Shown here: positions 20,494 to 23,052 of the stretch, piece by piece
Layout of the letters: each line of letters begins with the position of its first letter
Position numbering within the stretch: position 1 is the stretch's first letter
Sequence record: MN850637.1
Origin: Escherichia phage warpig
Length of the DNA: 64,000 nucleotides
Direction: 5' to 3' (one strand)
The notes under the pieces: model-generated
What the model saw: the letters and a program-made list of their open reading frames with translations, nothing else
Told to the model about the DNA's origin: nothing
Databases searched by the model: none
Program-made: the position numbers and the translations under genes

Positions 20494-20558
20494 ATTACTA
20501 ATCAACGGGAGGGATGACCTCCCTACTAAATAAAGTCCTTAAACTAGGAGACTCTAAA
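20468..20558 (+). promoter_or_regulatory. class-2 cassette (TTGACG-N17-TAAATT overlapping upstream stop codon)
   Basis: -35 20468-20473, -10 20491-20496. Confidence 0.45.
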
Positions 20559-20807
20559 ATGGCAACTATCCGCGCAACTGTTAACGAATTTGGCTTCTAC
20601 TCTCTGGATGTTAAATTCGACCTTGTAGGTACTGATAACGCCTTTGAAATGGTGAAAGTTCTTATCAGTCAGACCATCAAAGACTATAATCCTTCAGATG
20701 AGTTCTGGAAAGAAACAAAACAGGAAGTTCTCAAAGAGGGCTATTCATATCACTATTGGGGTGAAAAAATCGTCTCCCTGTACTACGACAAAGAAGGCAC
20801 TAACTAA
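20559..20807 (+). CDS. small early-region protein (hypothetical)
   Basis: ATG at 20559 (MATIRATVNEFG...). Confidence 0.45.
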   Translation: MATIRATVNEFGFYSLDVKFDLVGTDNAFEMVKVLISQTIKDYNPSDEFWKETKQEVLKEGYSYHYWGEKIVSLYYDKEGTN

Positions 20808-20845
20808 TCGACGCAACGGGGCTAAATAGCCCCAGATACCTTTAC

Positions 20846-20873
20846 AGCCCCTTTCCCATAGGGGCTTTTTTAC
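20846..20873 (+). terminator. Rho-independent terminator closing the + strand early block
   Basis: AGCCCCT-TTCCCAT-AGGGGCT followed by TTTTTT. Confidence 0.6.
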
Positions 20874-21289
20874 GTCTTATCAAATCCCTTATACAACCCT
20901 TTCCCTTTCCTTTCCAGAATCTTATCAGACCTTAAAAAGCAATAACTCTATAGTCTACTCTATAGCCTTTTATCAAATCAACTTAAATATAAGCCCATAA
21001 CCCGAAAGGGAAGGGCAACCGTTTAAACGCTCTATAAAGCTCTATAACAGCCTTATCAACCTAACTTAAGGGATTGCATTAACTCACCCTAAAAAGCCCT
21101 TTATAAAGCTTCCCAGAGACTTAAAAGAATCTTATAAGGGTGTAAGCTTTATCATCTCGTTAGCTATCTTGTGAACTACTAAACAAGCCCCTTGATAGTA
21201 ACTGAAAAGTATGTTATAGGGGCTTTAAAGTTACTTTGAAGTAGCTTAAAAGTTACGTAAATGCTAGCCCCCTTAACAATTTCTTAACA

Positions 21290-22300
21290 AACCCTACATA
21301 GTTATGCTTTTAAGGTACTTGTTAGCAACTTGTTAGCACCTTGTTAAATCTCTGTTAAGACCACGTAAAAGCCTTGTAAGAGTCTTTGACATAGCCTTTA
21401 AAGCCCCTGTAAAGCCCTATAAAGAGCTATCTGTACAGTTGGGCTGTAGTTACTAGGAAGAGACTTAAAAGGGGCTATACAGAGCTATACAGAGCTTTTA
21501 AGAGGTATGTTTAAAGAATCACTAAGAAAGGAAAGGGAACGATAAGAAAAAGAGTAGTGACCATGTTAATAGCTTGTTAAAAAGATTAAACACTTGTTAG
21601 AAACTTGTTAATTATCTTAACAAAATAACTCTTAAAAATTAACTTGTTAGCTCTTGTTAGTCATCTGTTAAGATTCTGTAAAGCCTATTCAGCACTTGTT
21701 AATTGGTATTGTTACCAATCCCTAGAAAACTGTTACAGCCTTGTTAGTTCTGTTAAGAATCTGTTAAGACCTCTGAAGTGTTGTTAAGAAGATGTGAGAA
21801 CTGTTAAGAGATTGTTAAGGATATTTTAAAATTTTGCAAAGTACTTGTAAGGGAGCTGTTAAGGGCTACCAAGCAGATATACATCCTCTACAGATATTTT
21901 TGAGTTCCTTCAAAGACCCTAAAAAATGACTTGATAGTCCTATTTTATAAAAATTTTAAAAATCTGAATAATTACCTATACAGTCTTTTAAAAATACAGG
22001 TAGAAACAGGCTTATAAGATACCTTGTTAGTACCATGTTAGACCTTGTGAGATAAGGTCTGTAAAGATATTCCTGTTAAGTTTGTTAAAACAGTCTATAT
22101 AGAGGCTTAGTAATACCTAGTGAACACCTATAGAGAGTCACATAGTTAACCTAGAGATTAAGAGGTGTATAGGAGCTTCTAAGAAGGTGTAGAGAGATGG
22201 TTAAGGTGATTGTATAGACTGTTAAGAAGGCTTGTTAGAGGACTTGTTAGAAGGGTTATACAGAGGGGCTATTAAGACCACTAGATAGTTACTAAGATAC
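21290..22300. repeat. iteron field: about 30 copies of the octamer YTGTTAR(G) plus TATAGAG/TATACAG repeats in an ORF-free region
   Basis: Read directly; examples CTTGTTAG at 21309/21321, CTGTTAAG at 21694/21770/21782, TTGTTAAG at 21802/21832; no ORF >=60 aa on either strand in 20808-22458. Confidence 0.6.
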
Positions 22301-22420
22301 TATATAGTACTATATAACTATATAGAGAGTAAGATTAAGAAGGTTGTTAAGAAGAATAGATATTTTGTTCACATATGATGGTGACCCAGAGGTTGGGACA
22401 ACCGATAAAATTTTATAAAA

Positions 22421-22452
22421 ATTAAAAAGCCCCCGATTAAGGAGGCTCTTAA
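22421..22452 (-). terminator. Rho-independent terminator for the - strand block
   Basis: On the - strand: AGCCTCC-TTAAT-CGGGGGCT then T-rich run. Confidence 0.5.
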
Positions 22453-22458
22453 GATATT

Positions 22459-23052
22459 TTAAATCAGTGTTTCCAGAACTGTTTTTAGGGATGACTTAGT
22501 TGTCTGATAAAAATGAGTGAATCTATTGTTGTTATCGAATATCTGCATCATGATAGCATCCCCCTTGATTGGATACACTCGGATATCATAGTGAAACCCG
22601 TTAAAGACAGCAGAACCATTACAGAACACACTAAAATCATCCACTGAGATATACTCTTCATGACCTGTGATTTTTATACAGACACCCTTACTCGGTCTCT
22701 TAGGGTTGATGTCTTCCATCACAGACATATTCTGTCCACCAAGAGATACCATAGTGACCACTTTACGGTTCTTCTGTTTAAAGTACATTTTAACTTTCTG
22801 CAAAGTATCTTCATAGAACGGATAAGACTTCTCTACAAAGATTCCTTCAAGTGGCTCTTTACCATTTTCAACTTCTCTGTTATGCCGTACTGCAAAGATA
22901 ATTTGTTCGAACCAGTCAAGATTTTCTTCGGAGAGTGCTTCTCGAACATCGTTCCAGTCAAGTACTAGGTAGTTACCTTCAACTTCTTTTAAGTTATCTT
23001 TTTCCATAGCTATCACACCATTATCGTAAAACTTGGTAGGCTGGTACTGCAA
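22459..23052 (-). CDS. hypothetical protein
   Basis: 197 aa ORF. Confidence 0.5.
   Translation of the reverse strand: MQYQPTKFYDNGVIAMEKDNLKEVEGNYLVLDWNDVREALSEENLDWFEQIIFAVRHNREVENGKEPLEGIFVEKSYPFYEDTLQKVKMYFKQKNRKVVTMVSLGGQNMSVMEDINPKRPSKGVCIKITGHEEYISVDDFSVFCNGSAVFNGFHYDIRVYPIKGDAIMMQIFDNNNRFTHFYQTTKSSLKTVLETLI

Follow-up and report, generated by a model that had tools for sequence, protein, structure and literature searches.

What is the function of 1.55 kb of phage DNA that appears to carry no gene and is filled with one short repeated word? The question is raised by positions 20874-22420 of the 64,000-nucleotide stretch of Escherichia phage warpig (MN850637.1) that we analyzed, referred to below as the window. 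An earlier note, made from the sequence alone, described the region as free of ORFs of 60 aa or more on either strand and as flanked by convergent terminators. It offered five roles (replication origin, packaging or terminus recognition, partition-like site, nucleoid-protein landing pad and structured non-coding RNA) without choosing among them. The absence of ORFs and the terminators are both borne out by our analysis. Between positions 20808 and 22458 the largest ORF is 47 aa long and represents read-through of the repeats. Hairpins followed by T runs are present on both sides, and terminator-like sites number four, compared with 1.2 expected. The + strand gene block, whose last gene stops at 20807, is closed by an intrinsic terminator at 20846-20876 (hairpin 20846-20866; a 7-bp stem with five G-C pairs, then TTTTTT). 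The - strand block, whose last gene ends at 22459, is closed by one at 22425-22450 (hairpin 22450-22425; a 10-bp stem with five G-C pairs, then a T run). Phage AYO145A has annotated terminators at the homologous places of both. The ten ORFs that flank the region correspond only to PHROGs of unknown function.

The identity of the region is apparent from comparison with relatives. The window belongs to Felixounavirus; the region has matches in 256 phage records, with garuso the closest at 94.5%. In UAB_Phi87, a direct terminal repeat (DTR) of 608 bp was determined by Bal31 mapping and run-off sequencing (PMC4837284). The printed repeat (PMC4837284 Fig. S1) aligns to window positions 21272-21872 with 91.9% identity; this mapping used the sequence in the paper's supplement, because the GenBank record JN225449.1 is an earlier version opened elsewhere than at the termini. 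Ro111lw and SLAM_phiST56 carry identical sequences of 613 bp and 611 bp, respectively, at both ends of their records, in each case starting with GCCCCCTTAACA and ending with TGTTAAGGGCTACC. By homology to these three phages, the window holds a single collapsed copy of a 604-bp DTR at 21267-21870, with GCCCCCTTAACA at its start, TGTTAAGGGCTACC at its end and the motif reading outward at both ends. The ends were transferred by homology; the left one is uncertain within 21253-21275 and the right one within 21870-21872. Sources (the BPS15Q2 record start, PhageTerm-type starts and the UAB_Phi87 run-off) disagree on the left end by as much as 14 nt.

Independent records open at the same place. At least six Felixounavirus records start at GCCCCCTTAACA (H12, E9, I14.1 and Ro111lw) or no more than 14 nt away (NBEco004 and BPS15Q2), and the records that open at or near this word come from at least three laboratories. 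The record starts, together with boundary words that are invariant in 16 phages, indicate fixed, non-permuted termini at conserved nucleotides. DTRs have also been reported by PhageTerm for Philippine coliphages, including H12, and for Pr103Blw and NBSal004. The 127-bp end overlaps of the NJ12 and PC79-13 records were not accepted as terminal repeats, as they look like assembler k-mer artefacts.

From these alignments we conclude that a Felix O1-like phage almost certainly has its DTR and termini in this region. A linear genome was assembled as if circular, to judge from the alignments, and its two terminal repeats appear once. The + strand genes lead into the right genome end and the - strand genes into the left, which accounts for the convergent terminators and for the absence of ORFs. 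Of the roles offered in the earlier note, packaging or terminus recognition is thus the one whose location holds, since the genome ends and the DTR of the group map to 21267-21870; the note had missed that a linear genome has its terminal repeat here.

The repeated word is YTGTTAR. It occurs 25 times on the + strand and three times on the - strand of positions 20874-22420 (28 in total), and its TGTTA core 30 and four times (34 in total), in agreement with the earlier count of roughly 30 copies. First-order Markov simulations of the region gave 1.25 ± 1.1 copies, with a maximum of seven, compared with the 25 observed, so that the motif frequency is well above what base composition predicts. The whole window has 93 YTGTTAR matches. 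The region, 2.4% of the sequence, accounts for 28, and the remaining 65 agree with the shuffle expectation. The densest 300-nt interval of the region contains 14 copies, and no interval elsewhere contains more than three. Successive copies are 11 bp apart, start to start, in 12 of 35 pairs, and pairwise distances peak at 11, 20-22, 31-33, 42-44, 51-55 and 65 bp. The motif period is therefore about 10.7 bp, or about one helical turn, and several short arrays with a period of 10-11 were also identified by Tandem Repeats Finder. The spacing of 4-12 bp given in the earlier note is better described as phasing at about 10.7 bp. The TATAGAG and TATACAG repeats that the note placed near 22.1-22.3 kb exist, but they are few and are not confined to that interval: TATAGAG is at 22098, 22129 and 22321, and TATACAG at 21476, 21486, 21977 and 22257. 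The word CTCTATA is at 20946, 20958, 21030 and 21040.

The DTR contains 24 of the 34 TGTTA cores; the other ten are outside. At the left terminus, a boundary element on the - strand (21267-21290, GCCCCCTTAACAatttcTTAACA) has two motif copies 11 bp apart that face outward to the terminus. Two copies are present here, three in most relatives and four in heid. Among Felixounavirus and Suspvirus phages, 12 have GCCCCCTTAACAatttcTTAACA without any change, and Mooglevirus has the variant GCCCCCTTTACA. Array A (21319-21412, + strand) has four YTGTTAR copies spaced exactly 11 bp apart (21319-21358), a period of 11 with 94% matches, and TGTAA variants at 21375 and 21408. The central segment (21413-21563) is without TGTTA and without multi-base indels among relatives; it includes GCTATACAGA repeats at 21474-21496 and a purine-rich tract at 21521-21556. 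Array B (21564-21862, + strand) comprises about 20 TGTTA or TGTAA copies phased at 9-13 or 20-22 bp, with one - strand copy at 21618, and stops 8 bp short of the right terminus. Similarity to Erwinia phages at the nucleotide level is detectable in this array alone. Inside it, a 22-nt cassette at 21701-21722 (AATTGGTATTGTTACCAATCCC), a 7-bp inverted repeat with a 4-nt spacer, is optional and differs in position between phages. The right boundary block (21831-21883, + strand) is invariant in 16 relatives and consists of ATTTTGCAAAG (21831-21841), TGTTAAGGGCTACC (21857-21870), which ends at the terminus, and AGATATACA (21875-21883), which is just outside it. The outward TGTTAA copies end 6 bp from the left terminus and 8 bp from the right one. 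With arrays just inside both DTR ends, repeated subsites bracket the cleavage positions, which is the arrangement looked for in a terminase site.

The DTR lengths of 16 relatives fall on an 11-bp ladder from 569 to 625 bp, and all eight multi-base indels are of 11, 22 or 23 nt. The 604-bp repeat of the window has one 11-bp unit fewer at its left end than most relatives. Across ten phages from three genera, conservation is 92-93% for the cores versus 80% for the spacers. The pattern extends to another genus. The Erwinia phage M7 (Kolesnikvirus) has a 444-bp DTR that is identical at both record ends, as are those of Ro111lw and SLAM_phiST56, whereas the window shows the collapsed copy. At its left end M7 has three outward motifs at 11-bp spacing, with TTAGCCACTTTTACAtttcgTTAACAactttTTAACA at the left terminus, and a + strand array spaced 11, 20 or 22 bp continues up to the right end. 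Its right terminus aligns to the right boundary block of the window with an agreement of about 2 nt (E 1.7e-10), and both M7 termini align to those of the window within 2-4 nt. About ten other Kolesnikvirus records open at the same place, within 10 nt of each other.

Helical phasing, cores that are more conserved than spacers and indels only in units of 11 or 22 bp strongly support the prediction that the TGTTA array is a set of protein-binding sites. The earlier suggestion of a protein-binding iteron field is thus supported by the anatomy of the sequence, namely phasing, core conservation and quantized indels. A structured non-coding RNA transcribed from the region, also suggested in that note, could be argued from the motif strand bias of 25:3 and from DTR folding z-scores of -1.8 (+ strand) and -3.2 (- strand), but these scores are accounted for by motif copies in inverted orientation at either end of the DTR. 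An Rfam scan of 20500-22800 (E ≤ 1) gave no relevant match, the sole match being a sub-threshold Phe_leader over a terminator (24.8 bits versus a gathering score of 55). A sigma-70 promoter scan was at chance (nine found versus 7.7 expected), and the terminators on both sides face inward and stop read-through into the region. Moreover, indels of 11 and 22 nt maintain the helical phase of DNA and not the pairing of an RNA. No transcriptome for the genus was found in the literature. We consider an RNA to be extremely improbable.

A host protein could also be the occupant of the array. The idea is that a host DNA-binding or nucleoid protein insulates, for example, the two convergent transcription units. 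Winged-helix regulators of the PhoB/OmpR type bind head-to-tail sites of 11-bp periodicity, which the periodicity of the array recalls; all hosts are Enterobacterales, and CTGTTAAgaatCTGTTAAG resembles the pho-box half-sites, CTGTCAT. On the other hand, the core may be unlike known host consensus sequences, no comparable array is present elsewhere in the 64-kb window, and the conservation of the boundary words and the location at the termini point to a phage function. Occupation by a host factor is, in our estimation, very unlikely.

The DTR is bordered by unique non-coding sequence on both sides. The flank at 20874-21266, which adjoins the right-hand DTR copy in the virion, has 10-11-bp repeats of the types CTCTATAG, CTATAAAG and CTTAAAAG and only two TGTTA cores, and is 67-94% conserved per 50-nt bin across three genera. 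The flank at 21871-22420, which adjoins the left-hand copy, has three TGTTA clusters, all on the + strand: C (22024-22088), D (22219-22250) and E (22344-22350). It also has CTATATAG repeats at 22095-22135 and 22298-22327, and the sole AT-rich tract of the region (21934-21982, ≥87.5% A+T). A packaging model gives no specific account of the ten TGTTA cores and the other conserved repeats in this roughly 1 kb of conserved non-coding flank.

The AT-rich tract brings in the replication origin, another of the roles in the earlier note. Origins, too, are classically laid out as phased direct iterons beside an AT-rich tract. On this reading, replication would begin beside the terminal repeat, with a phage initiator or helicase loader bound to the TGTTA iterons and melting of the tract at 21934-21982; such an origin may act alongside packaging. 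The direct, helically phased iterons together with a single tract of this composition speak for it, and T7 has secondary origins near its ends. However, the tract is outside the DTR, 70-150 bp from the nearest arrays, whereas most motifs are inside. The flanking genes have no replication-related domain, no initiator gene is nearby, and no DnaA-box-like site within one mismatch occurs in the region. The turn in GC skew at about 20 kb merely tracks gene orientation, and an origin has no need of outward motifs exactly at the two termini. No origin mapping for the genus was found in the literature. For the origin proposed earlier, neither an initiator gene among the flanking ORFs nor a DnaA box was found, and we regard this reading as unlikely.

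We also scanned IMG/VR for three TGTTAR copies 11 bp apart. Most of what it returned was single chance matches and Ounavirinae contigs. Dense TTAACA/TGTTAA arrays also turned up, in other contexts, in a few unrelated contigs, and no neighboring protein family was found to be common to the array-bearing contigs. One of them (viral contig L090) has TAACA arrays beside a DUF927/Cch-HTH helicase gene, an origin-like setting that counts in favor of an origin. Because similar arrays are found in unrelated contigs and other contexts, the motif type is not diagnostic of packaging.

Comparison with known systems places the region among terminal repeats. The Ounavirinae DTRs of UAB_Phi87 (608 bp, experimental), Pr103Blw (581 bp, PhageTerm) and M7 (444 bp, GenBank record) are like the window in sequence, flanking genes and boundary words; they are orthologous to 21267-21870, and nothing essential differs. 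The T7/T3 junction has a terminal repeat of 160-230 bp flanked by short-repeat arrays (SRL and SRR), with pac signals. It shares with the window a non-permuted genome, a short exact DTR, one copy per concatemer junction and clustered short words. In T7, however, the arrays flank the repeat, whereas here most motifs are inside it and helically phased. T7 also has its own RNA polymerase and a recognized small terminase, gp18; no equivalent was found in the window, where the large terminase is of the T4 type. Repeated subsites for small terminases are known from the R sites of lambda cosB, the pacL and pacR boxes of SPP1 and the pac hexamers of P1. As in the window, short repeats bracket the cleavage positions in these sites, where the nuclease is presumably positioned by a nucleoprotein complex. 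The window differs in having about 25 copies in 600 bp, strict phasing at one turn, cuts 604 bp apart and no small terminase gene beside that of the large terminase.

The type II centromere parC of plasmid R1, bound by ParR, has ten 11-bp iterons. Tandem iterons of 10-11 bp are also what the array presents, and the likeness is a good physical analogy for the way in which the array may be bound: on such iterons a small protein coats one face of the DNA and forms a superhelical complex. It is an analogy and not membership, as there are no par genes, the phage is virulent and the array is at the genome termini. Domains of the partition NTPase and adaptor are absent from the ten flanking ORFs, and the phage group is described as strictly lytic (PMC11737134). 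The partition-like site proposed in the earlier note is accordingly unlikely.

If the array serves the genome ends, its protein could act on ends that are already formed. Once the DNA has been injected, a protein bound to it might pair the left and right repeats for recombination into circles or concatemers, or protect or anchor the ends. The array fills the very repeat that must recombine, both virion ends present the same motif, and the phasing and quantized indels fit a cooperative filament. Homologous recombination of 600-bp repeats, however, needs no specific sites, and the outermost motifs at the cut sites are better explained by end formation. We therefore hold pairing or protection of the repeats to be distinctly unlikely.

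We return to the formation of ends. On the sequence evidence, a role of the motif array in terminus generation or packaging has about an even chance of being correct. The combined reading, that the region is the genome end (concatemer junction) of a Felix O1-like myovirus and that its array serves terminus generation or packaging, is one we somewhat favor. The large terminase gene (36846-38462) encodes a T4-type protein (Terminase_6N/6C). With Pfam and PHROGs, no small terminase was found next to it; the upstream side has tRNA genes and an acidic ORF of 66 aa only. This ORF was considered as a candidate and rejected: it has no Pfam match, belongs to a PHROG of unknown function, probably forms a coiled coil and is unlikely to bind DNA. 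In the Pharokka annotation of H12 no small terminase is listed in the 45 kb examined, including the neighborhood of the large terminase, and only a large terminase was found in UAB_Phi87 (PMC4837284). The ten ORFs flanking the array have no match in Pfam, and no candidate binder is among them.

A mechanism can be proposed that starts from what is observed, namely the location of the termini and the statistics, phasing, orientation, conservation and quantized indels of the motifs. The TGTTA(A/G) motifs would be putative sites for a sequence-specific DNA-binding protein, probably encoded by the phage. The identity that we propose for this binder is that of the missing small terminase or of a DTR-recognition factor. 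With one site per helical turn, its subunits would line one face of the DNA and polymerize along, or wrap, the repeat of about 600 bp into one nucleoprotein complex. The outermost outward sites (TGTTAAGGGGGC on the left and TGTTAAGGGCTACC on the right) would position the large terminase, which would cut 6-8 bp beyond them; the chemistry of cutting, like the duplication of the repeat, is a supposed part of the scheme. One cut would be made per DTR boundary. The repeat would next be copied, as happens in other short-DTR phages, giving a packaged genome with a copy of the repeat at both ends. The virion DNA is predicted to start with GCCCCCTTAACA and to end with GGGCTACC. In its strongest form, which we put forward tentatively and consider rather doubtful, the array would act as scaffold for a terminus-defining complex of a kind not described before. 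A non-canonical protein would replace the small terminase, polymerize on about 25 phased sites and wrap the whole repeat, the outermost outward-facing subunits would set both cuts, and changes in the length of the repeat would be confined to whole turns, in steps of 11 bp.

In kind, the region is ordinary: it is a phage terminal repeat. The DTR was already known in the group, whereas the phased array inside it appears to be undescribed. The UAB_Phi87 paper (PMC4837284) and the Felix O1 and wV8 genome papers are without comment on a phased array inside the repeat; the latter two do not discuss the region, and the PhageMaP study of Bas63 was aimed at genes and not at the genome-end region. Felix O1-type phages are widely used for typing of Salmonella and E. 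coli, in biocontrol and in therapy, and engineering of them is under way, Bas63 being an example. The position of the ends, 21267 and 21870, is of practical use for rebooting genomes, for their synthetic assembly and for annotating them correctly; most public records open at another position and show only one copy of the repeat. Together, the phased array, the outward boundary motifs and the 11-bp ladder provide a testable handle on how short-DTR myoviruses recognize and duplicate their ends.

The region at 20874–22420 lacks any ORF of 60 aa or more, as the earlier note had claimed; its longest ORF is 47 aa. The convergent terminators described there are also present, as inward-facing intrinsic hairpins that border the region at 20846–20866 (+ strand) on the left and 22450–22425 (− strand) on the right. 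Matches to the region were found in 256 phage records, all of them Felix O1-like (Felixounavirus, Suspvirus and Mooglevirus), with garuso as the top match (94.5%). In all matching phages, an equivalent ORF-free gap of 1.6–1.8 kb separates the same two convergent genes and is annotated at most as 'repeat_region' or with terminators. No candidate binding protein is apparent near the region because none of the flanking genes has an assigned function.

The roughly 30 ordered motif copies noted earlier correspond to 25 YTGTTAR matches on the + strand and 3 on the − strand, or to 30 and 4 for the TGTTA core. Composition-keeping simulations of the region predict 1.25 ± 1.1 motif copies, far under the observed count. 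The remaining 62.4 kb of the window has 65 matches, about what chance would give (~69 predicted from whole-window shuffles). The densest 300-nt stretch of the region contains 14 copies, compared with at most three in any other 300-nt stretch of the window. Copy-to-copy distances peak at 11, 20–22, 31–33, 42–44, 51–55 and 65 bp, a phasing of ~10.7 bp. The copies share the consensus (C)(T/C)TGTTA(A/G)(G/A)(A), and its main forms are CTTGTTAG (n = 9) and CTGTTAAG (n = 8).

We mapped onto the window the ends of GenBank records that begin or end inside the region. Ro111lw and SLAM_phiST56 carry identical sequences of 613 and 611 bp, respectively, at their two record ends, starting with 5'-GCCCCCTTAACA and ending with TGTTAAGGGCTACC-3'. 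The H12 record starts with the same word, E9 and I14.1 share the 17-nt alignment offset of H12 and Ro111lw, NBEco004 ends at about the place where H12 and Ro111lw start, and BPS15Q2 starts 14 nt upstream of their start word. For UAB_Phi87, Bal31 digestion together with run-off sequencing established a 608-bp direct terminal repeat (DTR; PMC4837284), and the sequence of this repeat (Fig. S1 of that paper) aligns to window 21272–21872 with 91.9% identity. Two 581-bp repeats were reported for Pr103Blw using PhageTerm (PMC8303462), and the literature lists Philippine coliphages, including H12, and NBSal004 as DTR phages; the Felix O1 paper merely inferred 'short terminal repeats'. From the mapped record ends and the UAB_Phi87 alignment, the predicted DTR spans 21267–21870 (604 bp), with its left boundary within 21253–21275 and its right within 21870–21872. 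The window, a circularly collapsed assembly, holds a single DTR copy; in the virion, the right-hand copy adjoins 20874–21266 and the left-hand copy 21871–22420. Judged from sequence, the region comprises the terminal repeat and genome ends of a Felix O1-like phage, which largely explains what it is. Comparison with homologous regions of related phages, which the earlier note had proposed, places a terminal repeat at the same position. Among the candidate roles named there, packaging or terminus recognition gains support, since genome ends of relatives map inside the region, and an origin or RNA is less favored.

Two peculiarities of the records were also seen. SLAM_phiST56 has 50 additional nt ahead of its left DTR copy. 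NJ12 (OQ845959) and PC79-13 (OR687644.2) each have an exact 127-bp overlap at both ends (loci L004, L005, L008 and L009 of the comparison), annotated 'repeat_region' in PC79-13. The overlaps have their ends at 21879 and 21849, near the true right DTR boundary, and look like assembler k-mer overlaps instead of biological terminal repeats.

Of the 34 TGTTA cores, 24 lie inside the DTR (21 on the + strand, 3 on the −); the left flank holds two and the right flank eight, all on the + strand. A second, smaller family, partly palindromic (CTCTATAG, CTATATAG and TATACAG), is enriched too, chiefly in the flanks. A pair of − strand copies (GCCCCCTTAACAatttcTTAACA), spaced 11 bp apart, opens the DTR; array A comes next, with four + strand copies spaced by exactly 11 bp. 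The central 150 bp is without the motif, and array B, with ~20 copies, ends in TGTTAAGGGCTACC at the right terminus. An outward-reading motif lies 6–8 bp from each DTR end, so both virion DNA ends carry one.

Across 10 phages from three genera, TGTTA cores are 92–93% conserved, compared with 80% for the spacers within arrays and ~84% for the entire 1.65-kb gap. The boundary words plus the words outside them (...GTTACGTAAAtgcTA up to one boundary, AAGCAGATATACA onward from the other) show little or no variation among 16 phages. DTR-equivalent lengths in the 16 phages are 569, 570 (four), 579 (three), 580, 591 (two), 601, 603, 604, 611, 613 and 625 bp, spanning 569 to 625 bp in steps of ~11 bp. 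The left-terminus 11-bp TTAACA unit (window 21267–21290) is present in two copies here, three in most relatives and four in heid, and arrays A and B differ among relatives by whole 11- or 22-bp units; the DTR lengths thus form an 11-bp ladder. Multi-base indels in an alignment of 12 DTRs are of 11 nt (three), 22 nt (four) and 23 nt (one), with no other sizes, and there are only four 1-nt indels. The arrays therefore keep their helical register, which points to constraint on DNA geometry and cooperative protein binding. The earlier suggestion that the region may encode a structured non-coding RNA is unlikely, as the indel pattern fits DNA geometry rather than RNA.

A 22-nt cassette, AATTGGTATTGTTACCAATCCC, at window 21701–21722 consists of a 7-bp inverted repeat with a 4-nt spacer and TGTTA mid-way. 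The 64-kb window has a single copy; most relatives lack the cassette, which is found at three sites in the DTR: in the window and heid (L002), in Ro111lw (L020), and in SUSP2 (L015) and UAB_Phi87. In every case it adds exactly two helical turns, and it has the look of a small operator-like module that is either mobile or duplicated.

In Erwinia phages (Kolesnikvirus), nucleotide similarity is limited to the right part of array B. The M7 record has a 444-bp repeat at both ends, and about ten further Kolesnikvirus records share its start position. The M7 DTR starts with TTAGCCACTTTTACAtttcgTTAACAactttTTAACA, in which three copies face outward at 11-bp intervals; at its right end a + strand array with 11/20/22-bp spacing is followed by ATTTTGCAAAG, ~30 nt and the terminus, with AGATATACA immediately outside. 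In local alignments both M7 termini fall within 2–4 nt of the window termini. Given this layout and the matching termini, the DTR architecture is kept across the subfamily even where sequence has diverged.

The motif array is thus a conserved, phased and orientation-specific part of the terminal repeat. We infer that a sequence-specific protein would bind TGTTA(A/G) along one helix face and assemble cooperatively along the repeat. The outermost, outward-facing copies would direct the large terminase (TerL) to cut just beyond each DTR boundary, and the repeat would afterwards be duplicated in the same manner as in other short-DTR phages. TerL (36846–38462, Terminase_6N/6C) belongs to the T4 type. 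No small terminase is recognizable in the genome portion covered here, none is listed in a Pharokka-annotated relative, and the literature on UAB_Phi87 (PMC4837284) likewise reports none. Upstream of TerL are tRNA genes and a 66-aa strongly acidic ORF (36639–36839, + strand; phrog_4397, a family without assigned function; no Pfam match). This ORF lies directly upstream, at the place expected for a small terminase gene; from its composition, DNA binding by its product is unlikely.

A replication origin would also account for the phased direct iterons and for an AT-rich tract (21934–21982), but the flanking genes include no initiator gene, there is no DnaA box, and most motifs, plus the termini, point to end formation. 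A role of the arrays in pairing DTRs to form concatemers, or in protecting the ends, is compatible with the data, which do not separate it from the packaging model. A host factor might instead occupy the array, given a resemblance to tandem winged-helix sites.

When IMG/VR was scanned for three phased motif copies, the hits were mainly due to chance; a few unrelated contigs had dense TTAACA/TGTTAA arrays. These have 11-bp spacing, often in opposed blocks (L090, 4700–5000; L102, 7297–7540; L105, 10870–10980; L056, 6270–6470). The L090 arrays lie directly downstream of a helicase gene (DUF927/Cch-HTH), a setting like that of an origin, and those of L056 and L102 are directly upstream of genes without assigned function. 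From these cases, one-turn iterons of the TGTTAA type seem to turn up in phages in differing roles; short iterons like these are evidently reused for other functions, so the motif by itself proves nothing.

Elsewhere in the window, a conserved ~22-nt word, TAAACTAGGAGAnTCnAAAATG, which includes the ribosome-binding site and start codon, precedes five or more small genes in the + strand block (15154, 15978, 16582, 19944 and 20540, + strand; 0 expected by chance), surrounded by bigger repeated blocks of 70–110 nt. It resembles the 'start-associated sequence'-like 26-bp repeat of phage Mordin (PMC4611695). A 471-aa ORF (30126–31541, + strand) directly upstream of the 21-tRNA-gene cluster (31707–36416) has an H12 homologue annotated 'RNA-binding protein' and a homologue described as Ro60-like (Bas63 PhageMaP preprint). 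Several listed ORFs of this stretch, 35292–36242 among them, coincide in part with tRNA genes and are likely to be spurious.

Phages of this group were already known to have a DTR, whose sequence is published for UAB_Phi87; the window holds the orthologue. In the available literature we found no description of a helically phased motif array inside the DTR, of outward-facing copies at both termini, of an 11-bp ladder in repeat lengths, or of the conservation of this layout in Kolesnikvirus. The DTR is alike in kind to terminase recognition regions in its repeated subsites and to the T7 concatemer junction, which has arrays of short repeats, and physically resembles ParR–parC centromeres in its 11-bp iterons; it belongs to none of these families because their defining genes are absent. 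The phased array is thus one testable structural feature, apparently undescribed, in an otherwise known kind of element.
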